Part shown: positions 32,882 through 57,036 of the stretch, piece by piece
Layout: the number at the start of each line of letters is the position of its first letter
Numbering within the stretch: the stretch's first letter is position 1
Assembly (NCBI GenBank): GCA_965541585.1
Contig: CBEUCH010000015.1
Location: 7,120-71,119 of the forward strand
DNA length: 64,000 bases
Source: an uncultured bacterium
GTDB lineage: Bacteria > Zixibacteria > MSB-5A5 > UBA10806
Reading direction: 5' to 3'
The notes under the pieces: generated by a model
Told to the model about the DNA's origin: nothing
Seen by the model: only the letters and a program-made list of their open reading frames with translations
Databases searched by the model: none
Made by a program: the position numbers and the translations under genes

Positions 32882-33281
32882 AATCTCTCCCGGCATTGGT
32901 GCTTTAATCTTCCGATGATCATTCCAAGTTCGAAAAAACAGGGTAGCGACGATTATGTCAAGCGCAAAAGCCGCTCTTATAGTATCTTCAGGATTGTCGA
33001 TAACTCTTGCAGAGAACAAAGGAGGAGCGAGGAAATGGAGGCTTGTTTCGAAGCAATTTTAAGAAAGCCGAAAGCGTCAAACGGCCTCTAAATAACCGAA
33101 GTAAAGACGATCGATGATTCACATACTTTCTCCATCCAATGAGGATATTTCATGACCACCCCTGAATAGTTGCTCGTTTTTTTTACTCGGTTGCATTTCA
33201 AGAGCTTGCCGTGCCTGCAGAAAAAGTGAGAACTCACTTGTGTCTTTTTTATTATTATCGTAACTTAAAATGTAGATTATT

Positions 33282-33367
33282 GCCGGAATGGCGGAATAGG
33301 TAGACGCAAGGGACTTAAAATCCCTCGGTCCGTATGGACTGTGCCGGTTCGATTCCGGCTTCCGGCA
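33282..33367 (+). tRNA. tRNA-Leu (anticodon TAA), class II with a long variable arm
   Basis: Hand fold. The acceptor is GCCGGAA/TTCCGGC, the anticodon loop CTTAAAA, the extra arm CGGTCCGTATGGACTG, and the T-arm GCCGGTTCGATTCCGGC. Confidence 0.8.
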
Positions 33368-33476
33368 TTATAAATCACTACGAGTGAACGGGTTGCAAAA
33401 TGTGCATCGCAACCCGTTTTTTGGTGGATTGTAGGCAAGTCCTACATGAGTCCACACTTTTTGCGGTTTTTACCAG

Positions 33477-34550
33477 TCAATAAGGAAGTTTTGCCACCAT
33501 GTCGGTCTTGTATTTTTCCGCAAGATGAGCGTATATTTCTGTGGTTTTGATGGAGGAATGACCCAATAGTTCCTTTATTGCGTATAGCGGCACTCCTGCC
33601 ATCGCAAGATGTGAGGCATAGGAAAAACGTAGGGAATGGCAGCTAGCCCAGTCCAGGCCTATCGAGGAACAGGTCTTACTGATTTTCCGGCTTACTGTAT
33701 CGGGTTTCCATTGTGGGAGTTCCTTTCCTTTTTCATCCCGGGAACCAAAAACTTTATTGTCTTTTCTCCTTTGAAGTGAACCAAGCATTTTCCCAAGACC
33801 ACTTTTTTTATCAAACCCAAGGTATCTATACCTTCTACTCTTCGAATTTGACGCCCTTATTGTAATCTGGCATTTATTGAAATCAATGTCATCCCAGGTT
33901 AATGATAAGGCCTCGCGAAGCCTAACGCCCGTCCATAAATAAAAATTCACAACATCTTGGAAAACAGTTCCTTCAAACGCTTCGCGTAACTTCTCAATTT
34001 CGTCTACTTCAAGATACTTTGGTCGAGGCGCACCTTGGCTCCGTAGCATTTTGATCCTTCTAAAAGGGCTCGTTTCCATTAGCCCCCAGCTAAGAGCGGT
34101 ATTAAATATTGCCTTAAGATGACGAAGCTCTAGATTTACCGTCGATTCTGAAATATGTGAGTTTTTTCTATTTGACGGCTGGCTGAGTCTGTGTCTAACA
34201 TAACCATCAACGAGGGCGCTATTGATTGTTTTCAATTCAACGTTTCCGATGTATTTCGCAAACAATCTCAATACTCTTTCTTCTCTGTTTAAAGTCGATG
34301 GCCTCTTTACAAGACTGCAGTGATTTAAATAATCACGCATAAAATCTTCGAGTAGAATATTCTCAAATTGCCCTACTGTAGATTTGCCTTCAACAAGCTG
34401 GCTGCAAAACTTATGGTACTCTTTTTGAGCAGTCCGTTTATCAACTTCACCGATTGTTTTTAATTGATCTCTGCCATTCAATCTGTAACGAATTACCCAC
34501 ACAGATCTCCCCGTCCTGTAATTTCTTTTTTGCAATGAGGCCATCAACAC
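33477..34550 (-). CDS. int: Tyrosine site-specific recombinase (phage integrase family)
   Basis: The C-terminal catalytic region has HSLRFSYASHLAMAGVPLYAIKELLGHSSIKTTEIYAHL (R..H..R..Y signature). The N-terminus has a SAM-like core-binding domain. Confidence 0.85.
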   Translation of the reverse strand: MLMASLQKRNYRTGRSVWVIRYRLNGRDQLKTIGEVDKRTAQKEYHKFCSQLVEGKSTVGQFENILLEDFMRDYLNHCSLVKRPSTLNREERVLRLFAKYIGNVELKTINSALVDGYVRHRLSQPSNRKNSHISESTVNLELRHLKAIFNTALSWGLMETSPFRRIKMLRSQGAPRPKYLEVDEIEKLREAFEGTVFQDVVNFYLWTGVRLREALSLTWDDIDFNKCQITIRASNSKSRRYRYLGFDKKSGLGKMLGSLQRRKDNKVFGSRDEKGKELPQWKPDTVSRKISKTCSSIGLDWASCHSLRFSYASHLAMAGVPLYAIKELLGHSSIKTTEIYAHLAEKYKTDMVAKLPY

Positions 34551-34565
34551 TCACCTCCTTTCCGG

Positions 34566-34793
34566 CTATTTGATAAAGTTGATTTTTTGTTTGAATTCGT
34601 TTTCCTCGATGAAATGAACGACCTGGTCGTAGGTGAAACAGATTGAATTTCGGCCGTATCGAGTACAGGTGATCCGCCCGGACTTTATCCAGCGAATGAC
34701 CGTGTTATAGTGGACACCCAGGAGATCAGCCACCTCACGTAAGGTCTTGGTCAATTTACCGTCGGGCCAGGTGTTCATCTCCTTATACCTCAA
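34566..34793 (-). CDS. Excisionase-like / MerR-type HTH DNA-binding protein
   Basis: It is a 75-aa protein with the HTH LREVADLLGVHYNTVIRWIKSGRI, positioned directly upstream of int, which is the classic xis position. Confidence 0.5.
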   Translation of the reverse strand: MRYKEMNTWPDGKLTKTLREVADLLGVHYNTVIRWIKSGRITCTRYGRNSICFTYDQVVHFIEENEFKQKINFIK

Positions 34794-34874: not shown

Positions 34875-35339
34875 CTACGTTTGACTGCCTGACGGACTAT
34901 TTTTTAGTCCGTGGCCGAATTCGATGAACAATTTATTGGCATTGACCAGATGCTCAAACATGTCCCGCATATCGCCAATCAATCTCTCAAGCGATTTTCC
35001 GATTTCATCAACCGATTCGAACCTATGCTCCTTAGCTATATGATGAGATAAATTCCCAATGATGATCGTCCATTCATGCAAAAAACCTCGAGTGAGAGAT
35101 TCATAATTCTTCAGATCATCCAAGGATTGGAATTCTCTGGCTGAAGATGCGAGTTGATCCAGCCTGGGGAGGATGTAATCAGTATATGCTCGAACCGAGA
35201 TATACGTTTCGCCATTTTTATCCTCCAGGGCATCCGCGTCAGCAAGGATGTCCATCGCAGCTCTGCGCTGACTATCATCAAGGCGGAGCGCTTTAAAATG
35301 GTCTTCCAACAGTACGTGGAAATCGCCTTTATCTTTCAT
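34875..35339 (-). CDS. Hypothetical protein, member A of a divergent paralog pair
   Basis: It is alignable to the 35433..35924 product (DADALEDKNGETYISVRAYTDYI vs DKADALSQENEIEYISFKTYSTFM; the C-terminal regions are also collinear). It matches no known family. Confidence 0.4.
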   Translation of the reverse strand: MKDKGDFHVLLEDHFKALRLDDSQRRAAMDILADADALEDKNGETYISVRAYTDYILPRLDQLASSAREFQSLDDLKNYESLTRGFLHEWTIIIGNLSHHIAKEHRFESVDEIGKSLERLIGDMRDMFEHLVNANKLFIEFGHGLKNSPSGSQT

Positions 35340-35432
35340 TGTTTTACCTCCATTTTTGGTTTGTAAGAATGTCAGCGTTTTTTTAGGGTCGCCCTAGTCG
35401 CCGCAATAAAGACGGCGACTAGAGCAGTAAGG

Positions 35433-35924
35433 TTATTCGCATTCATGCAAGTTATGGCCTTCCGCGTAAGCCCTTAGGATCTCATCCGACGGAGGTGGGG
35501 CACCCATATCAAAGAGGATTTTGTGGCTGGATATGCAATGGTCGACCAGGCTTTTCAACTCAGAATTTACGGTCACCCACGCCTGAAAAAGGTCGCTCCT
35601 GATGGCACTATTACGTGGATCAACCGCCATGTTCATTATATCCACGCCGAATAACATCCATTCCTTCACCAGCTTGGCCGCCAGCGACGCATAAAAACTG
35701 TAGTCCTCCTCGGTCTGCGACTCAACTGCCATATTCTCCAATCCACTTAGGGCGTCATGCATAAATGTTGAATAGGTCTTGAATGAAATGTATTCGATTT
35801 CGTTTTCTTGGGATAAGGCGTCAGCTTTATCGAATACGGCACGGATTGATTTACGGCAATTGTCGCATTTTCCTTTAGTGTGGAGATCAAAAGGGATTAA
35901 GACGTCTTTTTCTAATCTTGTCAT
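35433..35924 (-). CDS. Hypothetical protein, member B of the paralog pair. The listed ORF extends to 35987; ATG 35924 has AAGGA 6 nt upstream.
   Basis: See 34875..35339. It adds an N-terminal CDNC Cys pair. Confidence 0.4.
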   Translation of the reverse strand: MTRLEKDVLIPFDLHTKGKCDNCRKSIRAVFDKADALSQENEIEYISFKTYSTFMHDALSGLENMAVESQTEEDYSFYASLAAKLVKEWMLFGVDIMNMAVDPRNSAIRSDLFQAWVTVNSELKSLVDHCISSHKILFDMGAPPPSDEILRAYAEGHNLHECE

Positions 35925-35998
35925 TTTTTTCCTTTCATTTTTGTACCCGGTCGCCTCATAGTGGTGGCGACAGGAACCTGATCGCATTCAAGTGCAAA

Positions 35999-36868
35999 TC
36001 AGACATCGTACATCGTGCCAGGGCCAACAAACCTTACCCTGATTTCCTTTATCCTTTCTCCCCAGCCTTCTACCTCACCGATCAAAGCTTCGACGTCGTA
36101 AGCACCATCGCCGAGCCCAGCTGGGATCAGAACCGCAATTCCTTCTCCTATCTGGTAGCCTCTCTTAAAGCCATCCACAATCTCTTGTATTGGATGGATA
36201 TCACTGTGGAAATGACATGGATCGAAGACCATGACATACCCGCTATCAACATTAATCTGGCCAATCGTGGTCCACATGTCCTCTACGGCTGTCTCCTTGT
36301 TCGTTGTCGCAGATACCGGTTCTCCTCCAGAGTGATATTTTTTCGCTGTTCCTTCACGCTTCCTGTTCTCAAGGAAGGAATCGACCCGTTTTTTCTCCTC
36401 GGGGATGAGCTTTCCAAGACGATCCTCAGCCTCTTCTAATGTCTTCAGATCTGCATCGAGCTCGCCATAAACATCGCGGTATTCATGAGCGAGATCCAGC
36501 CGCTTACCAGGGTCATCTTCCTGTAGCATCTTGCTGAAGGTTTCTTTTAGCTTAATTTCTTTTAACAAGGATAGGGTGGCCAATCGATAAGTAATGCCTC
36601 GAAGTTTACCGATGGAATTGATCGTATTAACTATTTTGGACGGCTCGATAATTCCCCTGCCAGTCTGCCCTGGGGACTTGAGTTCGCCCAGCTGTCCCAG
36701 AAGTAGGGACGATAAACGTATGTAATTGTTCTCGCCTATTCTGATAAGAGCGTCGTGAATTGAGGCTTGGATCTCCAGGGTTTTCTGATCAATGCCAGAT
36801 ACATTGGAGTAAGCTTCTGCCAACACGAGGTCGCCGAAAACATCAAGTAGTTTGTTTTGATTTTCCAT
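35999..36868 (-). CDS. Hypothetical protein (289 aa)
   Basis: The ORF is long and open, and tightly packed with its neighbours on the same strand. No motif is recognised (no GGDEF/CD-NTase/mCpol signatures were seen). Confidence 0.4.
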   Translation of the reverse strand: MENQNKLLDVFGDLVLAEAYSNVSGIDQKTLEIQASIHDALIRIGENNYIRLSSLLLGQLGELKSPGQTGRGIIEPSKIVNTINSIGKLRGITYRLATLSLLKEIKLKETFSKMLQEDDPGKRLDLAHEYRDVYGELDADLKTLEEAEDRLGKLIPEEKKRVDSFLENRKREGTAKKYHSGGEPVSATTNKETAVEDMWTTIGQINVDSGYVMVFDPCHFHSDIHPIQEIVDGFKRGYQIGEGIAVLIPAGLGDGAYDVEALIGEVEGWGERIKEIRVRFVGPGTMYDV

Positions 36869-36940
36869 TTATTTCGTTCTCCTATTTTTATGCCCGGCGC
36901 CGGATGGAACGGCGACGCGGGCGTTAATGGTCAACAGTTA

Positions 36941-37480
36941 CTACTTGACTGGCTCGGCGACAGGTGTCGCTCCTTCTTCCGGACCTCCATCCTCGGCAGA
37001 GTCGTTAGCTTCCAAATCGTCAAGCATCGCTCTTCGCTCAGCCTGTACGCGTTTCAAACCCTGCGTGGCATCTTCGAGATTCTTGCGGTGGCGTTCAAGA
37101 TCGGTCTCCAATGTGCTTTTCTCCCCGCGTAAACTGTAGATCTCGTCATCGGAGGTAGCGTCTTTAAGCAAGGCTTCGATTGCTTTTAGCCTCCGCTCTT
37201 TCTTCTTAATGATGTCAGGCAATCTTTTCAGATTCGATTTGAGGATGCCGATCTGTTTGGTATCCGCCAAGGTCTTGCCGGTCTTCGAGCGTTCGCTTAC
37301 TTTGGAATTGAATGCCCTCAGAACGTTGGCATCCCACTCCTCCAGGCAGATATGTGGCGCCCCGGCATACTCGAAGAGAATACCGGCTTTCGATGCCTCC
37401 TCGGTCACTTTATCAACATCAGAATATTCCCGAAGTTCGGCCAACTGTTGAATTGTTAAAATTGTCTTTGGGGATTTCAA
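36941..37480 (-). CDS. Hypothetical coiled-coil protein (179 aa)
   Basis: The central region is charged and heptad-like (KKKERRLKAIEALLKDA...LETDLERHRKNLEDATQGLKRVQAERRAML). Confidence 0.35.
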   Translation of the reverse strand: MKSPKTILTIQQLAELREYSDVDKVTEEASKAGILFEYAGAPHICLEEWDANVLRAFNSKVSERSKTGKTLADTKQIGILKSNLKRLPDIIKKKERRLKAIEALLKDATSDDEIYSLRGEKSTLETDLERHRKNLEDATQGLKRVQAERRAMLDDLEANDSAEDGGPEEGATPVAEPVK

Positions 37481-37859
37481 AGAAAACCTCCTATGATAAA
37501 AGTTAAATTTTCATTATCTCATCTACTTGATAGTAGAAACGGGTTGTAGTGGGGTTCCTCCTTTCAGTCAGCATTCATTGACGATTAATTGGTCCATCCT
37601 TAATAATGTGACCGGTCACGAAAGCTCGACTCCTTCCCTGATAATTTCAAAACCTCCGAGATTCACAGGGGCAATCGTTCCATCAGCGCTTGCACATTCT
37701 TCTAACTAAAAAATTATCGGGGTTCACAAAATATAATGGATGATGTAAGCCACTATCTTGTGCTATAAACACTTAGAGAGAAAAAATAATTATAAAAAAA
37801 AAGATAATATTTTATTTGTATTATTGGAGGCTAATTACGGAGAGATAAACTACAAAATA

Positions 37860-39758
37860 TCAGCGATCAGAGCGCCGATAAATCTTAAATATTGAACAAT
37901 AATAACCCATATCCCTATCGCATTCTATTAGATTTTCTTCTATTTTGAAAAAATGGCGCAATCGCTCATTTGTTTCTGAAATGTTTACTATTAAAGTGGC
38001 ATCAGTCTTCTTATAATGTAATATTCCGTTACTATCAGCCAGCTTACCCAGCACCTCTTCGTAAGGCCTAATTGAATTTCTTTTTGATTTTATATTCTGA
38101 AAACCCATCTCCTTAAACGTTCTAATTTCTGTTGGATGCTTTTTCCTAACATCATTGATATCAAATTTACATGAATCGTCTGCGAAACCAACTACAAGCT
38201 GCTTCCATTCAATTCCGGGTGGCAATATAAATGGGATTATTGAATCAATCGCTTCTTGTGGGATAGACGGTTTTTTCTCTTTGGCTTTTTGTTCTCTATC
38301 TATTAATAAACTATCTGGAAGTTCAGTCAAAGTGTTTTCATTATCATCAGCGAGGAGTACTGTTCGTTCAATTACTGACCGCAGTTCCCTTATGTTGCCC
38401 TCTTTCCAGCTGTGTAATTTTAGTTTCTTTAATAGATCTTTGGAAACTTTCCGGATATTTTTCCTGAATTGTTTCGAGAATTCAGCAATAAACAGGTTAA
38501 CAAACTTTTCAATATCGTCGCTTCTTTCTCTTAAAGGAGGTATATGTATCTCATAAGTATTTATCCGATGATAAAAATCCTCTCTCATAATGTTATTATC
38601 TATTAAGTGACGTGGTTTTTTGCTCAATGTCATAACTATTTTAATATCTGTTTTTATACTCTTGGTAAAGCCCTGTTCCTGTATTTCCCCCTTATCTAAA
38701 AACCTCAGCATCTTTCCCTGAAAATCATAAGGCATATCATTGACATTATCTAAAAATACTGTCCCTTTATCAGCCTGTTCAAAGATGCCCTTTTGATTGT
38801 GTATCCCTTCCAAAAAAGGTCTATTCTTGGCGCCGAATAGATAATACTCGAATGCAGCATTTGCAATCTCGGAGCAGTAAACAACATAGAACGGTTCCCT
38901 GTTTCTATTACTTTTGCCATGAAAATAGCGCGCAATAACATCTTTTCCGGTTCCGGGCTCACCGTTAAGTAATATGATTTTTGCTTCATCATACTTAGCG
39001 ATTTTTTCAACCTCTGATAAAACATTCTTAAAATTTGGAGCATCCCCGATTATAGTGAAAGGCTGATCAGCTATTTTCATAATTGCCGGTTTTGCCTGGT
39101 CAACATATGTCTGAATATTCCCGACGAGATCAGAATAACTGTCCGTATCTCCGAGAATATTAGCATACTTTTCACCAAGCCGGGCGAATGGGATTTCCTC
39201 AAGAGCGATATCGGCATTCTCACCCTTCCGCGGATAGAAATAATCTGGTGTCATGATGCCCTCGGGGTGTCGAAGGTAATAAAGATGATCTTGTTTTCTG
39301 CCTAATATTGTTAAGGCGAGTCCCAAATAAACGGACATTATTCTTCTTCCGCCCGCATATATACAGTGTAATTCTGTATCGGGGTCTTTTGTCAAGTTCC
39401 TAAGTAAATTCGCAATTTTATTCGCGGTCATTTCAAATTGTTCTGGAGTCTTTATATCATCCTGGATATTTCCTTTCTCATCTTCAATCATATAGATATC
39501 TTCTTCAGTAAATTTGGGGAATGTTTTATATTCCGCGCAAAACTTGCTGAAGACTTTGTTTTCGCCGAGTAAAGGGGGCATACCTGTTCTAGGATTACCC
39601 ATAAAGAGTTCGTCCCTGCCAATTGATGTTGTGATTAAGACTATTCTTTCAATATCGATGGGTCGCGGCCGTTTTCGGGTTCTAAAATACCAAAGCGACA
39701 GTGTTATAACGTTAGGGATGTTACCGAAGACGCCAAATAGCAAGTGCATCTTTTTCAT
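37860..39758 (-). CDS. Three-part protein: an N-terminal CARF-like Rossmann sensor domain, a degenerate sigma54-activator-type AAA+ core (GAFTGA absent, Walker B DE changed to DN), and a C-terminal 170-aa unknown domain with no Fis HTH
   Basis: The AAA+ core shows Walker A GEPGTGKDVIARYFH, an EYYLFG...RPFLEG segment replacing ESELFGHEKGAFTGA, Walker B VFLDNV, and IHIPPLRERSDDI plus SWKEGNIRELRSVIERTVLL (sensor II). The N-terminus has IVLITTSIG and IYAGGRRIMS, resembling CARF motifs hTLGTS and DxTSGTKAMS. Confidence 0.6.
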   Translation of the reverse strand: MKKMHLLFGVFGNIPNVITLSLWYFRTRKRPRPIDIERIVLITTSIGRDELFMGNPRTGMPPLLGENKVFSKFCAEYKTFPKFTEEDIYMIEDEKGNIQDDIKTPEQFEMTANKIANLLRNLTKDPDTELHCIYAGGRRIMSVYLGLALTILGRKQDHLYYLRHPEGIMTPDYFYPRKGENADIALEEIPFARLGEKYANILGDTDSYSDLVGNIQTYVDQAKPAIMKIADQPFTIIGDAPNFKNVLSEVEKIAKYDEAKIILLNGEPGTGKDVIARYFHGKSNRNREPFYVVYCSEIANAAFEYYLFGAKNRPFLEGIHNQKGIFEQADKGTVFLDNVNDMPYDFQGKMLRFLDKGEIQEQGFTKSIKTDIKIVMTLSKKPRHLIDNNIMREDFYHRINTYEIHIPPLRERSDDIEKFVNLFIAEFSKQFRKNIRKVSKDLLKKLKLHSWKEGNIRELRSVIERTVLLADDNENTLTELPDSLLIDREQKAKEKKPSIPQEAIDSIIPFILPPGIEWKQLVVGFADDSCKFDINDVRKKHPTEIRTFKEMGFQNIKSKRNSIRPYEEVLGKLADSNGILHYKKTDATLIVNISETNERLRHFFKIEENLIECDRDMGYYCSIFKIYRRSDR

Positions 39759-40377: not shown

Positions 40378-40824
40378 ATGAAAGAAACCCCTGATTTGAA
40401 ATCGCTCCGTCTGGCGCAAAAGCTAACCTTGGCCGAAGTGGCACTACGCATGGACGTTTCCAAAGGTTTTGTATGCCATCTGGAGAACGGAATCAGAAGA
40501 CTAAACGATGATCTGACCAAGCGGCTGGCAGCGGCTCTGGACTGTCCGGAAAACGAGGTATGGAAAGCCAGCCAACGTTCTGGCGAAAAGAATACGATTT
40601 CCAATAGCTGGATCTCTCAGGTAAGGATCAATGGCTATCCAGTTTTCGATGCTTTCAAGTATCATCTTGAAGCGAAGAAGAAAAAACCTGATGTCAGAAA
40701 TAGGGCAAGGCTCAGAAAACAGCTCGCACAATTCATAAGTGAGAACCTGCCGTTTTCGGTGATGGCTGAACTTTCAGAGAATGACATATTGCTGGACCAG
40801 GTTGTTGAGCACTGCAAAAAGTAA
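40378..40824 (+). CDS. XRE-family HTH transcriptional regulator (repressor-like) with a C-terminal extension
   Basis: The HTH is LTLAEVALRMDVSKGFVCHLENGIRRLNDDLTKRLAAAL (Cro/C1 type). It is divergent from the minus-strand operon, as phage repressors usually are. Confidence 0.6.
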   Translation: MKETPDLKSLRLAQKLTLAEVALRMDVSKGFVCHLENGIRRLNDDLTKRLAAALDCPENEVWKASQRSGEKNTISNSWISQVRINGYPVFDAFKYHLEAKKKKPDVRNRARLRKQLAQFISENLPFSVMAELSENDILLDQVVEHCKK

Positions 40825-40948: not shown

Positions 40949-41176
40949 ATGAATACAAAAGACATGAACTACGCAGCATATTTGCTGGCGAATAATCAAA
41001 AATTAGAAAACTGCTATGCTGAAGGACGCCGATTCTGGTTTGTGTTTTCGGATGATAAGGTTATTAATACGCTTGAAGAGCAGTATTATATGAATACTGG
41101 GGCTATTAAACCTCAGCACTTTATTAACGCGCAGAAAATATTGAAAAATCTGATAAGAAACTTCCGACCAGTATAG
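40949..41176 (+). CDS. Small hypothetical protein (75 aa)
   Basis: It is an open frame between the repressor-like gene and the primase. No motif is recognised. Confidence 0.3.
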   Translation: MNTKDMNYAAYLLANNQKLENCYAEGRRFWFVFSDDKVINTLEEQYYMNTGAIKPQHFINAQKILKNLIRNFRPV

Positions 41177-41241: not shown

Positions 41242-43767
41242 ATGTTTTGGGGCTTGAATATGAAGACTTTATCCAATTTAATTATTATGAACAGAAGTCT
41301 AATTTACGAGATTTTTTCACAACTTCAGGAAGGAGAGTACATCAGGTTAGCCTGGGAAGATAAAAATGAAGAGTTTCACTGGCAAGGAATAGACAACTAT
41401 GAACAATTTATAGCGAAAGTTAATGAATTAAGATCCAATCCCCATATAGCCAGTATCTGGTTTACGCCTCATCCGAGCAATTCGGAAACATCCCATGAAA
41501 ACGACAACGTTAAACATGTTCAATGGGTTTATGTCGATATCGATGATATTTCGACCGAAGATTTTATAAAGAACTACAATTTCATAAGACCAACATATAT
41601 TATTGCTACAGGTCACGGCGTTCAGCTTTATTGGCAGTTGAAGCAGCGTATAGCAGCACCTTTTGATGAATGGCGTTATGTCGAAAAGGCCATAGAGAAA
41701 AAGCTTAATGGAGAAAAAGGTTACCCTTGTGCTTTGCTTCGCGTTCCCGATACACCCAACAGAAAACATCTCATCGAGAAACATCGCAAAAAGGGATATA
41801 CAGTAGAAACCGATTGCAAGGTCATTGAATTTAATGATGTTGCCTACGGCCTTGATGATTTCATACAGGCCGGTTTGAAAATCAACGCTAAACCTGCTCC
41901 TACTATTCAAAGTAATGAATCTAAGCTGACAATCTCCGATCTAACGTGTATTCGTCAACACTGCGCTGCCGTAGACTCGGCGTTTAAATCTATTGAAAAT
42001 GACTCGGATAATGATAAAACGGCCGGTCACAATAAGCGTCTAACCGCTGCCAGCATCATAAAGCATACCGTTGATGATGAAGATTATGTGTTAAAGCTGT
42101 TCGGTAACACTGCTGATTTTAAAAAGGATGTCACGCTAAAGAACTATCAAAGTATAAAACAAAAACCAATCACTTGTAGGCAATTGCAGGAATGGAATCT
42201 TTGCTTCAAACCTTGCCAACTGATCCAAGACCTGAACAAGAAAAGCCCTATAGTATTTGCCTACCGCAAAGGAGTTCAGCTTAAGCGGACTAACGAATTA
42301 TTAAGCGACACTGAAAACGATGCCTGTTTTGAAGAACTTATGAAGCGGGCCAAAACAGTAGAAAATCCCGTTAATCAGTTAAAACTTATCAACAGAATAC
42401 AGGCTACAACCGGATTGAATAAAGCGGAAATCAGCCATTATATGCGTCGGGTCAAGGTTTTCGATGAATTAAATTCATATATAGTCAATGCCCAAGTGGA
42501 TCCTGTAAGAGCGGCAAAATACATAATCAAAAAATATCAACTGATGCGTTTTCAACAGGACTTTTATCAATTTGATGACGGCATATGGGAGCATAAACCG
42601 CAGGAAGAAACCGAATCACTTATTCATCACGAAATTGAAAAATACTCGGACAACCATACAATCAGCGAAGTCATTAACGCCGTAAAACGCGAATCATTGA
42701 TTACACATATACAAGTTGAGGATGCCCAGGATACTTATGTGATCGCGGCCGGTAACGGCTTATTAGATGTTCGTAATGACTCGCTTCGAGATTTTAAACC
42801 CGAAGATTATAGATTTGGGAAAATGGGTGCTGGTTATAATCCCGATGCCGATTGTCCGGCATTTAAGGATTTCATTAAAGAGCTGTTTCTTTTTGATGTT
42901 GACGCGTCAGATAAAAGGCTATTGGTGCAGGAGATATTTGGATATCTTTTAATCCCTGATTATACTTTGATAAAAAAGATGTTTTATTTCTACGGCCCTA
43001 AAGCCAACAACGGCAAATCCAGCCTAATTGAAATCATCCGATCGATTATGGGACCGGGCTACTTTGACAGCGTTCCTATGGATAAAATGAATGGTTTTCT
43101 GTTAAAACGCCTAATGGGAAAACATGCAAACGTCGTAGGAGATCAGGATGCTTACACTAAAGTTCCTGATGGAGTATTGAAACAGCTTATTGGCGGCATG
43201 GACGAAATTACCGCAGATGTGAAGTATAAAGATGCAATTAGCTTTATCAATCATGCCAGGCTGATATTCGCAGTAAACAAACTCCCATATTCTGAAGCGA
43301 AGGATGAGGGATACTTTACCAGGGCGGTTATTCTAACATTCAACAATCAATTTCTTATTAATCCAGACAAGAAGGATCCGCGGCAGATGAAAGCTGATAT
43401 TGAAAAGATACAGTACATAAAGGATAACGAAAAGGAGGGCATCCTAAATTGGATGCTGGAAGGTTTGAAAAGGCTATTGGTAAATAAGAAATTGACAATC
43501 CCGGCAACTTCGGCAACTGCCTTGAAGGACTACAAAACGAACAATAACAGCATATTACTATTTGTTAGTGATAGATGTCAGCTTGGATCATCATTTGAAG
43601 TGAGTCAATCTGAGTTGTATACCGATTATAAGGCATGGTGCTTAGATCAGGGATTTAAATTCTATGCAAATGCAATTACTTTCTGTGATCTACTTGAGCG
43701 GGAGTATAACGTAGCCCGCCAGAGGAATAAAAATTCACGACAGCTGTTAGGAATTCAAATGGCATAA
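41242..43767 (+). CDS. Primase-polymerase / D5-like helicase replication protein (phage/plasmid primase, P4 family C-terminal domain)
   Basis: The C-terminal NTPase has Walker A FYFYGPKANNGKSS and the surrounding conservation of the P4 alpha / poxvirus D5 family. The N-terminal half resembles a bifunctional prim-pol domain. Confidence 0.65.
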   Translation: MFWGLNMKTLSNLIIMNRSLIYEIFSQLQEGEYIRLAWEDKNEEFHWQGIDNYEQFIAKVNELRSNPHIASIWFTPHPSNSETSHENDNVKHVQWVYVDIDDISTEDFIKNYNFIRPTYIIATGHGVQLYWQLKQRIAAPFDEWRYVEKAIEKKLNGEKGYPCALLRVPDTPNRKHLIEKHRKKGYTVETDCKVIEFNDVAYGLDDFIQAGLKINAKPAPTIQSNESKLTISDLTCIRQHCAAVDSAFKSIENDSDNDKTAGHNKRLTAASIIKHTVDDEDYVLKLFGNTADFKKDVTLKNYQSIKQKPITCRQLQEWNLCFKPCQLIQDLNKKSPIVFAYRKGVQLKRTNELLSDTENDACFEELMKRAKTVENPVNQLKLINRIQATTGLNKAEISHYMRRVKVFDELNSYIVNAQVDPVRAAKYIIKKYQLMRFQQDFYQFDDGIWEHKPQEETESLIHHEIEKYSDNHTISEVINAVKRESLITHIQVEDAQDTYVIAAGNGLLDVRNDSLRDFKPEDYRFGKMGAGYNPDADCPAFKDFIKELFLFDVDASDKRLLVQEIFGYLLIPDYTLIKKMFYFYGPKANNGKSSLIEIIRSIMGPGYFDSVPMDKMNGFLLKRLMGKHANVVGDQDAYTKVPDGVLKQLIGGMDEITADVKYKDAISFINHARLIFAVNKLPYSEAKDEGYFTRAVILTFNNQFLINPDKKDPRQMKADIEKIQYIKDNEKEGILNWMLEGLKRLLVNKKLTIPATSATALKDYKTNNNSILLFVSDRCQLGSSFEVSQSELYTDYKAWCLDQGFKFYANAITFCDLLEREYNVARQRNKNSRQLLGIQMA

Positions 43768-44932: not shown

Positions 44933-46483
44933 ATGGCGAAAAAGGATATCAAAAAGAATTCCGAAAGTTTCGAAAAAACACTATTTAAAGCAGCGGACAA
45001 ATTAAGAAAAAACATAGACGCGGCTGAGTATAAGCATATTGTACTCGGCCTTATTTTTTTGAAGTATATTTCTGACTCATTTGAGGAATTACACATAAAC
45101 CTCCTGGCAGGCAAAGGCGAATACAAAGGAGCCGATCCTGAAGATGCCGATGAATACCGTGCTGAGAATGTCTTCTGGGTTCCCAAGGTTGCTCGCTGGT
45201 CGCATCTTCACTCACGAGCCAAACAGCCAACTATCGGAAAAGATGTTGACGATGCAATGGAGGCAATCGAAAAAGAGAACAAGACCCTCAAAGGTATCCT
45301 CCCCAAAGTTTTCGCCAAACCAAATCTCGACAAGACTTCATTAGGTGGGCTGATTGACATGATCGGCAACATTGCTCTTGGTGATGAGGCTTCAAAGAGC
45401 AAAGATATACTTGGTCGAGTCTATGAGTATTTTCTTGGCGAATTTGCTTTGGCAGAAGGCAAGAAAGGCGGACAGTTCTTTACTCCCAAGTCAATCGTCC
45501 AGACTATGGTCGAAATGATCGCACCCTACAAGGGCAGGGTATTTGACCCCTGCTGTGGTTCTGGCGGAATGTTTGTAATGAGTGAGAAGTTCGTTGCCAG
45601 CCATAAAGGTAAGGTCAACGATATTTCCATATACGGTCAGGAAAGCAACCAGACTACTTATCGCTTGTGCAGAATGAACCTGGCATTGCGTGGCATCGAT
45701 GGCTCGCAGGTTAAGTGGAACAATGAAGGCTCCTTTCTAAAGGATGAACACAGGGACTTGAAGGCCGATTTCATTCTGGCTAATCCGCCATTCAATGATA
45801 GTGACTGGAGCGGTCAACTCCTGAGAAAAGACCCTCGTTGGCAGTACGGCGCACCACCCACTGGGAATGCCAACTATGCGTGGATGCAACACATGATTTA
45901 TCATTTGTCCCCAAAAGGGATTATGGGATTGGTGCTTGCCAATGGGTCGCTCTCTTCGAATACATCTGGCGAAGGGGACATCCGTAATAGTATTATAGGT
46001 GCTGACTTGGTGGATTGCATTGTCGCTCTGCCAAAGAATCTTTTCTATAACGTCACTATTCCTGCGTGCCTTTGGTTTCTTTCCCGTAAACGGACAGGCA
46101 ATGGTAATAGGAAACGCTCGGGCGAGATTCTTTTCATAGATGCTACCGAAGTAGGCCACATGATTGATCGCACTCATCGGGTGTTTACCGATGAGGATGT
46201 GTTGAGACTTGCCAACACCTACCATGAGTGGAGAAAAGAGAATGGCAACTATGAAGATATCAAGGGCTTTTGCAAATCTGCCGCACTCAAGAACGTAGAA
46301 AAGCACAAATTCGTCCTCACACCAGGGCGTTATGTCGGCATTCCCGACGAAGAAGATGACGGTATTCCTTTTGATGAAAAGATGAAATCGCTTACTGGTG
46401 AATTGGCCCAACAAATGTCAGACGAAAAGCGGCTCGATAGTGAGATACAGAAGCAGCTAAAGAATGTCGGGTATAACATTTAG
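44933..46483 (+). CDS. hsdM: Type I restriction-modification system DNA methyltransferase subunit
   Basis: It has the HsdM N-domain ([15 protein letters not shown]), AdoMet motif I ([13 protein letters not shown]) and motif IV (NPPF, in [12 protein letters not shown]). Confidence 0.85.
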
Positions 46484-46503
46484 CCGAGAACTAACTTGAG
46501 GTT

Positions 46504-47367
46504 ATGGCAAAATTAGGCATTTCAGAGTTTTCATTCAGCTTTTCTTTTCTGCATGAGCAGGTAAATAGAAATGGTAGACCATTCTGTGTTCCTGTATTAC
46601 CCTCTCTGCGTAGAGAATCTGATGTAGGGTATGATGCTAAGCTTCCTAAAAAGGGGATTGACTACTATTTCCAATTCAAAATGAGTGATTACTTGCGAGG
46701 TGGAAATGCCAAATTTATTAAGGATGGCACATATAGAAGTCTTTACTATCGAATTGCTCTGCATAAGGCCAAGAAGAACAAACAGCACAATCTTCTCTAT
46801 ATGCTTTCTCAAAAGAACCCATATGTTTACTACGTTGCACCTAAGCTAAGAACAGATCAGTCATTTTATGATGCTTGTGTAAGAAGGTTAGTTACGGTGA
46901 GTTCAATGATGATTCCAGTGGATTCCTGTGGTTATGTCAGCGATTCGCTTCAACACTTTGTGACATATCCAGAATTTGGCTATGAGTGGCATTTCCATTC
47001 AAAGCCCAAGCGATTTGATAATGCAATTGAAGGGGAGCGGATAGTTTCGCACTTCGCAGAAAGTTCTAAGAACTGGGTGGCTATCAACAAGGAATTCGCT
47101 TTGAATGTTTATGAACGAATAAAGCAATCAACATATGTATATCAGAGTGGTGATTTTGAAGGGATAGAAGATAATACGAGGAAAGCTATAGGCGATGACA
47201 AAAGATTAGGTATCGTAGGCGTAGAAACCAAAAAGCCAACTTTCAATGTTGAAGAGTTCTTTGATCGGAATATAAAAAAGTCAGATACTTTTACGATATT
47301 GCAGAGAGCATCCGCTATTGCGATGATGTTATATGGTTCAGCACTGATGATAGTCGGTGAAAACTAA
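46504..47367 (+). CDS. Hypothetical protein inserted between hsdM and hsdS
   Basis: It is a 287-aa open frame within the R-M operon, with 20-bp gaps either side. No motif is recognised. Confidence 0.4.
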   Translation: MAKLGISEFSFSFSFLHEQVNRNGRPFCVPVLPSLRRESDVGYDAKLPKKGIDYYFQFKMSDYLRGGNAKFIKDGTYRSLYYRIALHKAKKNKQHNLLYMLSQKNPYVYYVAPKLRTDQSFYDACVRRLVTVSSMMIPVDSCGYVSDSLQHFVTYPEFGYEWHFHSKPKRFDNAIEGERIVSHFAESSKNWVAINKEFALNVYERIKQSTYVYQSGDFEGIEDNTRKAIGDDKRLGIVGVETKKPTFNVEEFFDRNIKKSDTFTILQRASAIAMMLYGSALMIVGEN

Positions 47368-47372
47368 CAATT

Positions 47373-48542
47373 ATGAACAAGACTGATTCAAAGCAAATAC
47401 CTGATGGATGGAAAGAAACAACATTGGGAGCACTTGTTACCTTTCAACGTGGTCATGATTTGCCGAGATCTAAAATGGTTGATGGTTCTTTTCCAATCAT
47501 GGGGTCAAATGGTATTATTGGATTTCATAACCAAAGTACAACAAAAGCTCCAGGCGTGACAATCGGTAGAAGTGGTAATATTGGAAGAGCCTTTTTAGTG
47601 AAAAGAGATTATTGGGCGCATAACACAACATTATATTCCAAACAGTTTCATGATTCGGATCCTGTTTTTGTATATTATTTAGTGAAAAACCTAAAATTTG
47701 AAAGATTCAATTCGGGTAGTGCTGTTCCAAGTTTAAATAGAAACTTCATTCATCCGATTCAGCTAAATGCTCCAATTATCTTTGAACAAAAAGCCATTGC
47801 CAGGGTTTTATCCTCTCTCGATGACAAGATTGAGTTGCTACGCAAGCAGAATGAAACCCTTGAAGCGATAGCACAGACAATCTTCAAAGAGTGGTTTGTG
47901 AACTTCAACTTCCCTGACAAAAATGGAAAGCCGTTCAAGGACGGCGGCGGCAAGATGATCGACTCCGAGCTGGGCGAGATTCCTGACGGGTGGAGAGTGG
48001 GTAAACTCGGCGACGAGTTTGGCATACTAATGGGGCAATCGCCACCTGGAACAAGCTACAATGAAGAAAGCGAAGGGGTTGTATTTTTTCAGGGCAGAAC
48101 TGATTTTCAAGAACGATTTCCAAAAGTTAGGCTCTATACAACAGAACCCAAGAGAATCGCTGAAGCATTTGATGTATTGGTAAGCGTAAGAGCACCAGTC
48201 GGTGATGTTAATGTTGCCATTGAAACCTGCTGCATTGGTCGAGGTCTAAGCTCTGTAAGAGGACAGCAACAATCCTACACATTGTACAAAATGAAGTTTT
48301 TGGGAGACGTATTGCGACGATTCGATGCAGAAGGGACAGTTTTTGGGTCAATTAGCAAAGATGATTTCAAGAGTATTGAAGTCCTGACACCGATGGAAGA
48401 ATGGATAAACTCATTTGAGAACACAGTCAATCCATTGGATCAGAAAATACTCTCAAATTATAAGCAAATACAAACATTAACTCGACTACGAGACATTCTG
48501 CTGCCCAAGTTGATGAGTGGGCAGGTGAGGGTGAGGATGTAG
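47373..48542 (+). CDS. hsdS: Type I R-M specificity subunit with two target-recognition domains
   Basis: The central conserved coiled region ELLRKQNETLEAIAQTIFKEWFVNFNFPD and the repeated TRD architecture are present. It is 389 aa. Confidence 0.8.
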   Translation: MNKTDSKQIPDGWKETTLGALVTFQRGHDLPRSKMVDGSFPIMGSNGIIGFHNQSTTKAPGVTIGRSGNIGRAFLVKRDYWAHNTTLYSKQFHDSDPVFVYYLVKNLKFERFNSGSAVPSLNRNFIHPIQLNAPIIFEQKAIARVLSSLDDKIELLRKQNETLEAIAQTIFKEWFVNFNFPDKNGKPFKDGGGKMIDSELGEIPDGWRVGKLGDEFGILMGQSPPGTSYNEESEGVVFFQGRTDFQERFPKVRLYTTEPKRIAEAFDVLVSVRAPVGDVNVAIETCCIGRGLSSVRGQQQSYTLYKMKFLGDVLRRFDAEGTVFGSISKDDFKSIEVLTPMEEWINSFENTVNPLDQKILSNYKQIQTLTRLRDILLPKLMSGQVRVRM

Positions 48543-48557
48543 AAGGAGGGAATCAAA

Positions 48558-48923
48558 ATGGAAAGGTATATTCTAACAACCTATGATAAGAACAGATTAA
48601 GCTCCTATCCTATGATAATTTCAATACACGGTAAATCGTGGTGTTGTAAGCAGGCTCGAATCCTTGTTCAAAGTATGGATGGTGGTTTCATAACTGCTAA
48701 CTGTATGAAATGTAATAATAAAACGAATGTATTGATTGACGAATTTCAATCTTTTGATAGAGACGTAAACTGTCCCAAATGTGGTATGGTTATGTCTCCT
48801 GCTTATGTCCCTGATGGAAGTAAAATTGAAGAACGTAACTATGGTTTTAAGTGCATGAAATGTGATATTTATATATGGGCATCTGATTTAATTCCATATT
48901 ATGAAGATTTTCCATATAGATAA
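48558..48923 (+). CDS. Small zinc-ribbon protein (four CxxC pairs) inserted between hsdS and hsdR
   Basis: CC-KQ, CMKCNNK, CPKCGM and CMKCD motifs are present. AGGAGGG lies 6 nt before ATG 48558. Confidence 0.4.
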   Translation: MERYILTTYDKNRLSSYPMIISIHGKSWCCKQARILVQSMDGGFITANCMKCNNKTNVLIDEFQSFDRDVNCPKCGMVMSPAYVPDGSKIEERNYGFKCMKCDIYIWASDLIPYYEDFPYR

Positions 48924-48931
48924 TAAGAAAC

Positions 48932-51900
48932 ATGACAAGAGACAAAATCACAGAAGATGCAGTCGAACAGGTAGCCATAGAGCTACTCGAAGAGCAGGGA
49001 TACCACTACCTCACTCCCGAACAGTGGGAGGCTGAACGAGGGGACCTATCCAATGTTCTCTTGAGGGATCGTCTGAAAACTGCCATTGATAAACTTAACC
49101 CGATAATTCCGCAGGAAGCGAAAGAACAAGCCTTACGAGTAGTGTCGAATCTTCCCAGTCAGAATTTGGTGGAGAACAACGAGACGTTTCATCGGATGTT
49201 GACCGATGGAATTGACGTTGAATATATGGGAGATGATGGCATTAAAGGTGATAAGGTCTGGCTTATTGATTTCAAAGAACTCACCGAAAATGACCTGGTC
49301 GTTTGTAATCAGTTTACGGTTATCCAGGACAGCCTCAACAAACGCCCAGACGTGGTGCTGTTTGTTAATGGATTGCCACTTGTTGTGATAGAGTTGAAAA
49401 ATCCAGCTGATGAAAACGCTACTGTTAAGAAAGCATATACCCAGCTCCAGAATTACAAGAACGCAATCCCCAATCTGTTTTATTATAATGGAATTTTAAT
49501 AGCTTCTGATGGCCTGGACGCAAAGGTTGGATCATTGACTGCAGGTTGGTCTCGGTTCATGGTCTGGAAAACGAGCGATGGAGCCAAGGAAGATAAGGTC
49601 ACTATTCCTCAAATGGAAACCGTCATCAGAGGTATGCTGAGACCCGATGTACTGTTTGACCTTATAAAGCAGTTCACTGTCTTTGAAAAAACCAAAAAAG
49701 AGGACACCAAGACCAGATTCACAACAATAGAAACAGCTAAGAAGATAGCGGCATATCACCAGTATTATGCCGTCAAGAAAGCAGTTGAATCTACCAAGCG
49801 GGCCGCCAGTGATAATGGAAGTAGAAAAGGTGGCGTTGTCTGGCATACGCAAGGCAGCGGTAAATCTCTTTCCATGGTGTTCTATTCAGGACAGACAGTA
49901 TTAGAACTTGATAACCCAACGATTGTAGTAATTACCGATAGAAATGATCTTGATGATCAGCTATTTGATACTTTCGCGGGTTGTAAACAGCTATTAAGAC
50001 AAGAGCCAGTACAGGCGGAGAATCGGGAACACCTAAAAAAACTACTCAAGGTTGCTGGCGGCGGTATCGTATTCACGACAATTCAGAAGTTCTCGCCTGA
50101 AGACGGCGGAGATGTATTTGATCTATTATCTGACAGAAAAAACATCGTTGTAATAGCCGACGAAGCCCATAGGAGCCAGTACGGATTCGGCGCCAAGACT
50201 ATCGTGCGAAATAATGAAGCATATACCAGTTATGGCTTCGCTAAGTATCTCAGGGATGCCCTTCCAAAAGCGACCTTCATTGGATTTACAGGCACACCTA
50301 TTGAAAAAGAAGACAGATCAACGCGAGCAGTCTTTGGCAATGAAATTGATATCTATGATATTTCTCAGGCTGTCAAAGACGGAGCAACTGTTCGTATTTA
50401 CTATGAATCCCGATTAGCTAAAGTCCACCTGAAACCCGAGGAGAAAGATAAGCTCGACGCTGAAGTTGAAAGAATAACTGAAGGTGAAGAATCGACTGCG
50501 AAGGAAAAGGCAAAAGCCAAATGGACTCAACTCGAAGCAATAGTTGGGCATCGGGATAGGCTAAAATCTGTCGCCAAAGATATTATCGATCATTTTGAGA
50601 GGCGGGAGGAAGTATTTGACGGTAAGGCCCTAATTGTGACTACGAGCCGTCGCATAGCTGTTGAGTTATACGAAAAAATAATGGCCTTACGTCCACATTG
50701 GCATGGCGACGATAAGAGAAAAGGCGAGATCAAGGTAATAATGACCTCCAGTTCCAGCGATCCTCAAAGCTGGCAAAAGCATAATACAACAAAGCAGGAC
50801 AGAAAAGACATTGGGGAAAGGTTCAAAGACCCGAATGATAGGCTGAAATTCGTTATAGTTAGGGATATGTGGCTTACAGGCTTTGATGCCCCTTGTCTCC
50901 ACACCATGTACGTTGATAAGCTGATGCGAGGACATAACCTAATGCAGGCCATAGCGCGCGTGAATAGGGTTTTCAAAGATAAACCTGGCGGCCTCATTGT
51001 TGACTATATCGGAATTGGATACGATCTCAAAAAAGCGATGGCAACCTATTCTGAAAGCGGTGGGGAGGGTGAACCAACTTTGGATATTGATGAAGCTATC
51101 GCGACAATGCTGGAGAAGTACGAAATCGTTGCTCAAATGTTTGATGGTTTTGATTATAAGCGATATTTTACAGCCAATACTAAAGACAAGATGACAATCA
51201 TCTTGGAAGCCCAGGAGCATATTCTCGGTCTGGACGACGGCAAGAACAGATTTGTAAGACAGGTGATTCTGCTTTCAAAAGCCTTTGCCCTATCCGTGCC
51301 AAATGAAGAGGCAATGGCGATTAAGGATGATATTGGCTTCTTTCAAACGGTAAAGGCTCGTCTCACGAAATTCACTCCAACAGGAGGCGGTAAGTCTGAC
51401 GAGGAGATAGAAACAGCAATACGGCAGATTGTCGATAAAGCCATAGTTTCAGAAGGAGTAGTCGATATATTTGCTGCTGCTGGTATCAAGAAGCCTGATA
51501 TTTCGATATTGTCGGATGAATTTATGGCTGAAATTAAAGGTATGAAACGAAAGAACCTAGCTTTTGAATTATTAAAGAAAATCTTGTCCGACGAAATCAG
51601 GCTCAGATTGACCAGAAACCTAATTCATGGCAAAAAGCTATCTGAACTGTTGGAAAACGCTATTAAGAAATACCAGAATAACCTCCTGACCGCGTTTCAA
51701 GTTATTGAAGAATTGATTGAACTGGCTAAACACATCAAGTCCGAAGATGAGCGCGGCAAAGAGATGAATTTGTCCGCAGATGAAATTGCATTCTACGATG
51801 CTTTGGCAGATAACGATAGCGCAAAAGAAGTTCTCGGCGATGACACACTACGAGAGCTTGCTAGAATATTGGTCGAGAAAGTTCGCGCTAATACGTCAAT

Positions 51901-52054: not shown

Positions 52055-52154
52055 ATGTCAGGAATTTATTTATGAATATTTTGAACCAAACATAACTTGA
52101 AGTCCACGAGCAGAAGATAAAAACAAAATAGGCGAGGTTTGGGGGGAATGACAT

Positions 52155-54647: not shown

Positions 54648-54817
54648 GTGTTGAATTGGATGAACCTCATCACAGTTTTGTGGATATTATAGCGCAGTTG
54701 TTTTGCTCGGAAGATATCTGGCTTTGAAAAAGGTTCGAACATCCTTATCCGAATCGATCATTATGGTATAACTCGCCCCGTTTAATAGCCGACGATGGTG
54801 CCATCAGTAACTTCAGG

Positions 54818-54843
54818 CCGCCTCCATTTGATGGTATAAGAAT
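54818..54843 (+). promoter_or_regulatory. Promoter-like direct repeat copy 1 (GCCGCCTC-N-TTGATGGTATAAGAA; extended -10 TGgTATAAG)
   Basis: It lies about 170 bp upstream of the GIY-YIG gene. A near-identical element is found at 57037..57063. Confidence 0.35.
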
Positions 54844-55014
54844 GAAGCTTGCTTCACACGAGGTCTGCTATTTTTGGATGCAATAAGATACGATCTGGAT
54901 CGATCAATCTGGGCCGTATAACCGCAATAAAATCCTTGCCGTATGGGCCATGTTTCTCCTAGAATTTCCACAATAAAGGCGTTTGAGCATTTGAGAATAG
55001 ACTAGGAAACCAAA

Positions 55015-55743: not shown

Positions 55744-55765
55744 GTAATACAGAAGGAGGTTTGTA

Positions 55766-56904: not shown

Positions 56905-57036
56905 ATAAAAGCTAAAAATCTAATATGAGCACTTGGATATGCGGGAGTTGTACCTATATTCCCTTAAAACCGTCCTCATGCCTTCGTCGGCTGCCAAATT
57001 GACAAAGAACCTTATGCTATAAGGGTGGCACATCAA

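Follow-up and report, generated by a model that had tools for sequence, protein, structure and literature searches.

A four-gene module next to the integrase of a Zixibacteria genomic island, possibly an accessory operon of the island backbone

We analysed four adjacent genes in a 64,000-nucleotide (nt) stretch of DNA (called the window in the following) from contig CBEUCH010000015.1 of assembly GCA_965541585.1, which belongs to an uncultured bacterium of the lineage Zixibacteria; MSB-5A5; UBA10806. The genes lie on the minus strand, with a gene for a regulator that has a CARF domain and an ATPase domain of the AAA+ type on one side, and the excisionase and integrase genes (xis and int) of an integrated island on the other. 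In the reading that we favour, and which we hold with slightly less than even confidence, the four genes form an accessory operon that is conserved in the backbone of a rare island family, one that integrates into tRNA and tmRNA genes. Such islands are primase-encoding elements that combine a satellite-like gene set with defence cargo. The operon itself seems to be made of three new protein modules, namely a coiled-coil protein (cc in the following), a duplicating family of about 155 amino acids (aa) and an optional beta domain of about 95 aa; in the window it comprises cc, a cc-beta fusion and two paralogs.

We favour this reading because the module has a constant position at the xis-int end of the islands, has no conserved CARF or AAA+ partner, carries no catalytic signature and encodes proteins of acidic, helical or beta character. 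A first-pass annotation of the window had proposed that the four genes encode candidate effectors or partners of an undescribed system. The genes are indeed real, uncharacterised and situated downstream of a sensor or regulator that is often of the AAA+ type, and to this extent the proposal stands. An effector role, on the other hand, is not supported: there is no effector chemistry, the ~155-aa family keeps only hydrophobic core residues, and all four proteins are acidic and helical or beta. A CARF-effector defence system is therefore less likely, in our view, than an island accessory operon tied to induction or excision.

Conservation of the module among related islands

Using the 289-aa protein, the ~155-aa family and cc as three queries, we collected 13 distinct related loci, some of which are assigned to metagenome-assembled genomes (MAGs) of Zixibacteria. 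We refer to single loci by number (for example, L014). The same arrangement recurs in them. One strand carries a primase gene, a gene for a 75-aa protein and an XRE gene, and wherever this right arm is visible it is the same set with a D5-type primase. The other strand carries one or more variable regulator genes, cc, one to five copies of the paralogs, optional extras, xis and int. The extras can be a cc-beta fusion or a free beta domain, a protein with a CxxCxxCC motif, or a Gly-rich peptide. In all nine loci in which that side is present cc stands immediately before the paralog array, and xis-int directly follows the module in 10 of the 10 loci with downstream DNA. The genes thus co-occur across related loci, and the objection that their homologues never occur together falls away. 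Where the flank is visible, the targets adjoining int are tRNA genes (Leu, Met, SeC and Asp) and the tmRNA gene. Among the related loci the module was never found outside this single mobile-element backbone.

Much of the remainder varies. There are two integrase lineages and two xis types, the islands hold differing combinations of diverged paralog subtypes, and several of them lack the 289-aa gene and the beta domain. The cargo varies as well, with type I restriction-modification (R-M) and PDC genes in the window and type I-C cas genes in L006. In L014, backbone plus module span about 11 kb.

As for the optional extras, a CxxCxxCC (PF03692) protein of about 260 aa lies directly before xis in L001 (8184-8981), L003 (11-793) and L016 (12247-13029), and Gly-rich peptides of 48-91 aa are found in a similar slot in L001 and L017. 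The island in the window carries neither.

The four genes and their products

Reading from the regulator towards the integrase, the module consists of cc (36941..37480, 179 aa, with a TTG start), the 289-aa fusion protein (35999..36868) and two members of the ~155-aa family, one of 163 aa (35433..35924) and one of 154 aa (34875..35339), all on the minus strand. Four co-directional genes between the AAA+ gene and int are therefore present just as first described. The tight packing that had been reported for them holds in so far as the intergenic gaps are short: with starts supported by homologues they measure 72, 74 and 93 nt, followed by 81 nt to xis, and 379 nt separate the module from the AAA+ gene. 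The gap of 11 bp that had been included in that description, however, arises only with an unlikely start. The 163-aa gene has an alternative ATG at 35987, which would give a product of 184 aa, but alignments of homologues begin at the 35924 start, which we prefer for this reason.

Compared with their orthologues, the module genes show ratios of nonsynonymous to synonymous substitution rates (dN/dS) of 0.2-0.6. This is purifying selection, and we therefore regard the genes as expressed and constrained. All four proteins are acidic, with isoelectric points (pI) of 4.9-5.5, and so are their N-terminal domains, which are net negative.

None of the four proteins has a family match in Pfam, NCBIfam or PADLOC. 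No nuclease, cyclase or toxin family was detected in these databases or in PHROGs, in agreement with the first-pass annotation, which had recognised no such motif. Likewise, Pfam and PADLOC give no effector domain, be it a nuclease, a protease, a pore, an NADase or another type, and the module proteins have no transmembrane-type matches. In PADLOC-DB 2.0, three of the proteins are without a match and cc has only weak coiled-coil matches (E of at least 0.0018). The sole notable PHROG match is that of the 289-aa protein to phrog_5209 (function unknown). Comparing profiles with profiles, as had been suggested, revealed a homology within the module (between cc and the 289-aa protein, see below), but no relatives with solved structures were found by sequence for the three family profiles. 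Taken by their sequences, the module proteins look non-enzymatic, and they diverge quickly although they are under purifying selection.

Between the two paralog genes there is a hairpin at 35394-35422 with a perfect stem of 10 bp (CTAGTCGCCG ... CGGCGACTAG), which is not followed by a T-run on the coding strand. A weaker, terminator-like hairpin lies 3' of the 154-aa gene (about 34805-34848).

The paralog family

The 163-aa and 154-aa proteins match each other in BLASTP with E = 1e-10 and 23% identity over 122 aa, and both are collinear in a single family alignment with further members. We take them to be true diverged paralogs, and the earlier claim that the last two genes are homologous yet highly diverged is borne out. 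The 163-aa protein is nearest to a '162-type' subfamily and has a Cys pair in its N-terminal domain, while orthologues of the 154-aa protein share 55-86% identity with it. The family is rare: an index of 5.8 billion sequences contains 33 of its proteins, and clustering at 50% identity gives 59 clusters in a set of 1.84 billion representatives. Some of these proteins are fusions of two or three copies. The median pI is 5.0, and 81% of the members are below pI 6. The near-invariant positions are all hydrophobic (A37, L57, L60, A134 and L137), and the family alignment contains no conserved polar or acidic residue. When 34 family members were scanned singly, no Pfam, NCBIfam, PADLOC or PHROG match was found. 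The 154-aa protein has no match in 50,697 phage records, 72,556 plasmid records or IMG/VR.

Based on a family alignment of 34 sequences, AlphaFold2 gives a confident model of the 154-aa protein, with a predicted local distance difference test score (pLDDT) of 87.4 and a predicted template modelling score (pTM) of 0.77. The model consists of a strand (8-10), two helices (11-18 and 22-34) and a hairpin (38-48), followed by three long helices in a three-helix bundle (49-147). Residues 8-48 have a beta-alpha-alpha-beta-beta order and a pLDDT above 90. With this model Foldseek finds no match at E <= 0.001, so structure prediction, which had also been suggested, yielded a good model but no firm fold relative. 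For the N-terminal ~50 residues several weak matches in BFVD are phage excisionases or small helix-turn-helix (HTH) proteins, all with E of at least 0.05; the weak PDB list for the model is topped by GntR- and PadR-type regulators with a winged helix plus a helical domain, and the remainder of the model matches generic helical bundles. On the strength of these weak fold matches, the N-terminal domain may resemble a small excisionase-like fold.

The likeness to the winged helix of excisionases and MerR-like proteins (HTH_17) thus lies in the order of the secondary structure elements, in the weak Foldseek matches and in the fact that the module genes adjoin a real HTH_17 xis. The differences are that the N-terminal domain of the 154-aa protein is acidic and not basic, that a three-helix bundle follows it, and that it has no HTH_17 match. 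Indeed, neither the module proteins nor the 34 family members have an HTH_17 sequence match in Pfam, and a comparison of the ~155-aa family with an alignment of the neighbouring Xis by hhalign is not significant (E = 0.47, probability below 1%).

One homologue, P0038, bears a name from JGI that indicates a MazG-like all-alpha NTP pyrophosphatase. We rejected this identity, as there are no conserved acidic residues, no MazG match in the 34 members and none among the fold matches listed. Another member, P0014, is deposited under a MAG of 'Candidatus Hodarchaeales archaeon' (Asgard), whereas the other named members come from MAGs of Zixibacteria; either the host range is broader or the sequence was binned wrongly.

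The coiled-coil protein, the fusion protein and the beta domain

The cc protein has an acidic N-terminal domain of about 60 aa, a conserved motif, a coiled coil of about 90 aa and an acidic tail. The motif reads TxQxGIxxSNLKRLP and is invariant around 'GIxxSNLKRLP'. Homologues with 46-51% identity occupy the same position in L001, L006, L009 and L017, and a hidden Markov model (HMM) of cc matches in L014, L015 and L016. No match to cc was found in the 50,697 phage records. With the neighbouring Xis alignment, the hhalign comparison of the cc family is again not significant (E = 0.15, probability below 1%). A role as a PspA-like negative regulator was considered for cc and rejected, there being no PspA/IM30 match.

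The TTG start of cc in the window (37478-37480) recurs in at least three sister islands, L006 (8849), L009 (9398) and L014 (10001), and L015 has GTG. By comparison of these sequences, a non-ATG start seems to be conserved.

The 289-aa protein has only nine homologues in 5.8 billion proteins. It consists of a cc-like part (residues ~1-175), a linker and a beta domain of about 95 aa (residues ~196-289) with the motif DSG..DP..GDGxY..VEA. The cc family aligns with its first ~165 residues over 148 columns (hhalign probability 93.6%, E = 2.1e-7). The module thus contains a second paralogy, between cc and the N-terminal part of the 289-aa protein. The AlphaFold2 model of the 289-aa protein (pLDDT 45) is too poor for a fold search; the order of its predicted secondary structure is a small N-terminal domain, a helical hairpin (81-171), a linker and the beta domain.

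A weaker signal joins the two halves of the module. A 37-column N-terminal segment of the ~155-aa family aligns with the cc family (hhalign E = 1.4e-4, probability 53%), while a direct comparison of the ~155-aa family with the 289-aa protein is not significant. The segment suggests one small N-terminal domain common to all four genes.

Residues 199-280 of the 289-aa protein match phrog_5209 with E = 1.4e-8. The phage proteins of this family stand alone and are uncharacterised, whereas the 289-aa protein joins the domain to a cc-like N-terminal half. In L017 and L018 the beta domain has a gene of its own, and there is a weak match in L006. Among phages, small hypothetical proteins of Mycobacterium phages, Bongo and PegLeg for example, match it with E = 3e-4, and weaker matches (E 0.08-0.6) are found in Streptomyces and Moraxella phages. 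The phage relatives are small genes of early regions. In Bongo (L019) the relative is gene 128, two genes from the serine integrase; in the Moraxella phage Mcat17 (L020) it has a VirE-type primase on one side and the terminase genes on the other. A DUF4241-like identity of the domain, suggested by the 'GDGxY' motif, was dropped, since there is no Pfam match at E <= 1.

The upstream regulator and the non-coding gap

The regulator (37860..39758, minus strand, 632 aa; annotated with Pfam, PADLOC and NCBIfam) consists of a CARF domain of the Cas_NE0113/CARF5-like type (residues 5-230), a sigma54-interaction AAA+ domain (residues 236-495) and an unannotated C-terminal domain (residues 489-631). The AAA+ part matches PF00158 (E = 1.8e-42), AAA_lid_14 (E = 1e-18) and, in PADLOC, RtcR_PspF2 (E = 1.9e-62). 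It is without an intact GAFTGA loop; the corresponding stretch, read by eye, is 'NRPFLEGI'. No Fis-type or C-terminal HTH was detected in it. Because the GAFTGA loop is degenerate and a Fis-type HTH is lacking, this protein may not act as a classical sigma54 activator. The loop is intact in the sister regulator L001_585 (L001 515-2272).

The first-pass annotation had linked the module to a CARF-like AAA+ protein, and this link does not extend to the related islands. A CARF domain is found in the upstream regulator of one of nine islands, that of the window, and is absent from ten regulator proteins scanned from seven other islands. A recognisable sigma54-type AAA+ protein is upstream in four of the nine (the window, L001, L009 and L014). 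L016 has a degenerate AAA+ relative, and L002, L006, L015 and L017 have no AAA+; in L006 there is no regulator gene at the regulator position at all. The C-terminal ~140 aa of the window regulator (37860-38294) recur in L015_293 (79% identity; L015 3444-4325) and L016_801 (40%; L016 7270-9675), whose N-termini have neither CARF nor an intact AAA+. Compared in this way, the regulator is a mosaic, and the C-terminal domain looks like its constant 'output' end.

The non-coding gap of 379 nt between the regulator and cc (37481..37859, minus strand) is presumed to be the regulatory region, and it is 83% identical to the equivalent gap of L015. We found no sigma54 -24/-12 promoter (TGGCACG-N4-TTGCW) with up to three mismatches in 37481-37859; the best score there is 8 of 12, which was equalled in 1346 of 2000 shuffles. 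L014 alone has a near-consensus sigma54 site, TGGCACACCTAATGCT, upstream of cc, with a score that 25 of 2000 shuffles attained. Together with the intact GAFTGA loop in L001, this site leaves room for sigma54-dependent control in some of the islands. For the gap in the window there is no Rfam match to a structured RNA or riboswitch, and its folding energy is not better than that of shuffled sequences (z = 0.27). Small leader open reading frames (ORFs) were searched for in the gap, and none is convincing or conserved.

Some smaller features of the gap can be added. A motif like a Shine-Dalgarno (SD) sequence, GGGAAGGAG, is found at 37630-37638 on the minus strand. Its general form GGRAAGGAG(G) occurs 27-165 nt upstream of the cc start in six of nine islands (the window, L009, L014, L016, L006 and L002), is degenerate in L015 and L001, and is absent in L017. 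In L002 it sits at the expected ribosome-binding site of the cc-like gene itself; outside L002 there is no conserved small ORF downstream of it. A perfect palindrome of 12 bp, GTGACCGGTCAC, lies at 37608-37619 and is not kept in the L015 gap.

A possible function within the island life cycle

How could an accessory operon of this kind work? The upstream regulator would sense a signal and switch on the leftward operon, with the sensor in the window being a CARF domain fused to an AAA+ domain of the enhancer-binding-protein type. The cc protein and the paralogs would work through contacts with other proteins, serving in assembly or as adaptors and not as toxins or catalytic effectors, at island induction, excision or a later stage of the life cycle.

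A precedent is the integrative element CTnDOT. Its regulator RteB belongs to the NtrC family. CTnDOT resembles the present island in being an integrative element with an excision-linked operon of several small proteins, among them Orf3, whose role is unknown. A regulatory cascade switches that operon on: xis2c-xis2d-orf3-exc is turned on through RteB and RteC (PMC3809561). There is no sequence relationship to the module, however. Xis2c and Xis2d have been described as acting in excision and regulation, whereas the module proteins are acidic, and in the window the island has no topoisomerase-like Exc and shows no conjugation genes.

Several observations weigh against an operon that serves induction or excision. 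For all four proteins the role is an inferred one. The N-terminal domains are acidic (pI 4.6-5.7, compared with 9.5 for the adjacent Xis) and the profile comparisons with Xis are non-significant, so that we see no support for a role in DNA binding like that of Xis. The spacing suggests co-transcription with xis-int, and there are hairpins 3' of both the 163-aa and the 154-aa genes. The window has neither a GAFTGA loop nor a -24/-12 element, and no promoter was identified there. Finally, all the loci share a common ancestry, and the synteny could reflect inheritance and not functional coupling.

The accessory-operon reading can be taken one step further, although what follows is a long shot. 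The island might time its excision or action through interchangeable sensor-regulators, one of which, with its CARF domain, perhaps hears the cyclic-oligoadenylate alarm of the host's immune system. The response would be carried out by a coiled-coil organiser together with an expandable array of acidic paralogs of excisionase-like fold that serve as decoys or adaptors on the integrase and excisionase or on proteins of a helper phage.

Alternative explanations

One alternative is that the module is an anti-defence or host-takeover array, modelled on the anti-restriction and anti-CRISPR arrays of other mobile elements, in which acidic proteins expressed early bind and neutralise proteins of the host or of competitors. 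The acidity of all four proteins and of the ~155-aa family fits this idea, as do the combinations of diverged subtypes with one to five copies and fusions, and the relaxed purifying selection with dN/dS up to 0.6. The position is suggestive too: temperate elements often keep genes of the anti-defence type in the early-left operon by int (the lambda-type layout), and the module occupies such an 'early-left' position next to int. In addition, the beta domain is also found among small early-region genes of phages. Against this, there is no similarity to known anti-defence families, and the module is constant in its backbone, whereas the gene content of anti-defence loci usually varies a great deal. 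The cc protein keeps about 50% identity across islands and an invariant motif, which suggests a fixed partner and not an arms race. On balance we consider such an array unlikely.

Closer to the first-pass annotation is a defence system, possibly acting by abortive infection, in which the CARF-AAA+ protein is the sensor and the four proteins are effectors or partners. Once a ligand had bound to the CARF domain, the activated ATPase would induce the downstream proteins or remodel them in order to stop the phage. The island is rich in defence cargo, and variable sensors ahead of a conserved module are reminiscent of conflict systems. There are also precedents. For RtcR-like CARF-AAA+ proteins that are not linked to rtc and adjoin R-M systems, a role in switching on the genes downstream after infection has been proposed (PMC4012209). 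RtcA and RtcB are reported to bind the CARF domain of RtcR (PMC9650030), an example of a sensor that has products of its operon as partners. The arrangement in the window is similar to RtcR- and PspF-type regulons in having a CARF domain and a sigma54-interaction AAA+ domain encoded upstream of a co-directional operon. It differs from them in that the downstream genes are not rtcBA or psp, in the degenerate GAFTGA loop and the missing Fis-type HTH and -24/-12 promoter, and in the replacement of the regulator by unrelated proteins in sister islands; moreover, the CARF domain is of the Cas_NE0113/CARF5 type and not of the RtcR type.

Several points speak against a defence system. CARF is limited to one island of nine and AAA+ to four, no effector domain, transmembrane-type or PADLOC match is seen, and the ~155-aa family has no conserved polar residue. 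A portable system is hard to reconcile with a module that is confined to one backbone and always lies beside, and upstream of, xis-int. Ancillary, CARF-associated effectors of type III CRISPR systems differ in the same respects, as the module has no effector domain and its homologues have no consistent linkage to CARF or SAVED. No cyclic-oligonucleotide synthase (Cas10 or CD-NTase) is present among those ORFs of the window, a part of the total, that were covered by the scans, and none of ten large ORFs scanned in the chromosomal flank is a cas10-type gene. We find a defence system rather improbable.

The least convincing explanation, to which we give little credence, is that the island is a phage satellite and that the module exploits a helper phage by redirecting packaging or remodelling the capsid, similar to Sid, Delta and Psu of P4 or TerS and Cpm of phage-inducible chromosomal islands (PICI). 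The 289-aa protein would then be like a small terminase, in which a small N-terminal domain is followed by a helical hairpin for oligomerisation and a beta domain at the C-terminus. P4 has a divergent two-operon layout, and so does the island, which also shares with P4-like satellites a core set of a tyrosine integrase, an AlpA-type HTH_17 protein, an XRE gene in a repressor region and a D5-type primase-helicase. Further likenesses are a divergent operon of small, non-enzymatic, partly coiled-coil proteins, the defence cargo, the lack of visible capsid, tail and conjugation genes, and the small size that some related islands seem to have (L014 with its backbone and module of about 11 kb). The order of the predicted secondary structure of the 289-aa protein is compatible with the three parts of a TerS; its model, however, is of low confidence. 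On the other hand, there is no homology to Sid, Delta or Psu, with no Psu, Sid, Ogr/Delta or terminase match in Pfam and PHROGs, and P4 Psu and terminases are absent among the fold matches listed. An AAA+ regulator stands in the place of Delta, the host is Zixibacteria-like, neither a helper phage nor a cos site is known, and IMG/VR contains none of the loci. Several islands, furthermore, do without the 289-aa gene and the beta domain.

The genomic setting is of a known kind, and the protein families are new. If the module controls or accompanies induction, it would be core machinery of an undescribed family of mobile islands. The defence cargo that these islands ferry (type I R-M, PrrC-like, type I-C CRISPR-Cas) is found in little-studied bacteria of the Fibrobacteres-Chlorobi-Bacteroidetes (FCB) group. 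The swapping of sensor domains, including CARF, before a constant module would be a natural experiment in how the life cycle of mobile elements is coupled to signals from the environment or from immunity. The catalogue would also gain three new protein families, for one of which there is a confident fold model. Should the module be no more than lineage-specific filler, its value would be limited to a better annotation of these islands.

The island and its surroundings in the window

The integrated island occupies the window from about 33.3 kb up to its end. Its left end is marked by the integration target, a tRNA-Leu(taa) gene (33281..33368, plus strand; ARAGORN and Rfam). It is followed on the minus strand by the tyrosine integrase (33477..34550, 357 aa; Pfam Phage_integrase, E = 1.1e-23) and the excisionase, an AlpA-type HTH_17 protein of 75 aa with a pI of 9.5 (34566..34793; Pfam HTH_17, E = 1.1e-9). 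A second copy of the 3' end of the tRNA, as expected at attR, was not found within the window, and we conclude that the island runs past position 64000 and is longer than 30 kb.

The divergent right arm starts on the plus strand with the XRE repressor-like gene (40378..40824; Pfam and PHROGs), the gene for the 75-aa protein (40949..41176), whose counterpart in L009 is 88% identical and carries Pfam DUF5659, and the D5-type primase-helicase (41242..43767; Pfam and PHROGs), which is 86-90% identical in L002 and L009. Pfam, PHROGs and other profile scans showed no capsid, tail or conjugation genes in the island within the window.

The defence cargo of the right arm extends over 44933..61964. It begins with a type I R-M system of HsdM (44933..46483), HsdS (47373..48542) and HsdR (48932..52054). 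Two ORFs of unknown function are inserted among these genes, one at 46504..47367 and the other, with a weak SIR2-like match, at 48558..48923. Then follow a PrrC-like AAA_13 protein (PDC-S06; 52155..54647), a GIY-YIG-RAMA protein (PDC-S14; 55015..55743) and a large helicase of 1304 aa (PDC-S68; 58050..61964).

On the other side of the tRNA gene, the chromosomal flank at 4035-27839 encodes a series of secreted proteins, among them BNR/sortilin and subtilase proteins, that have C-terminal sorting domains of the type IX secretion system (T9SS). Going by these predicted domains, the flank is consistent with a host from the FCB group.

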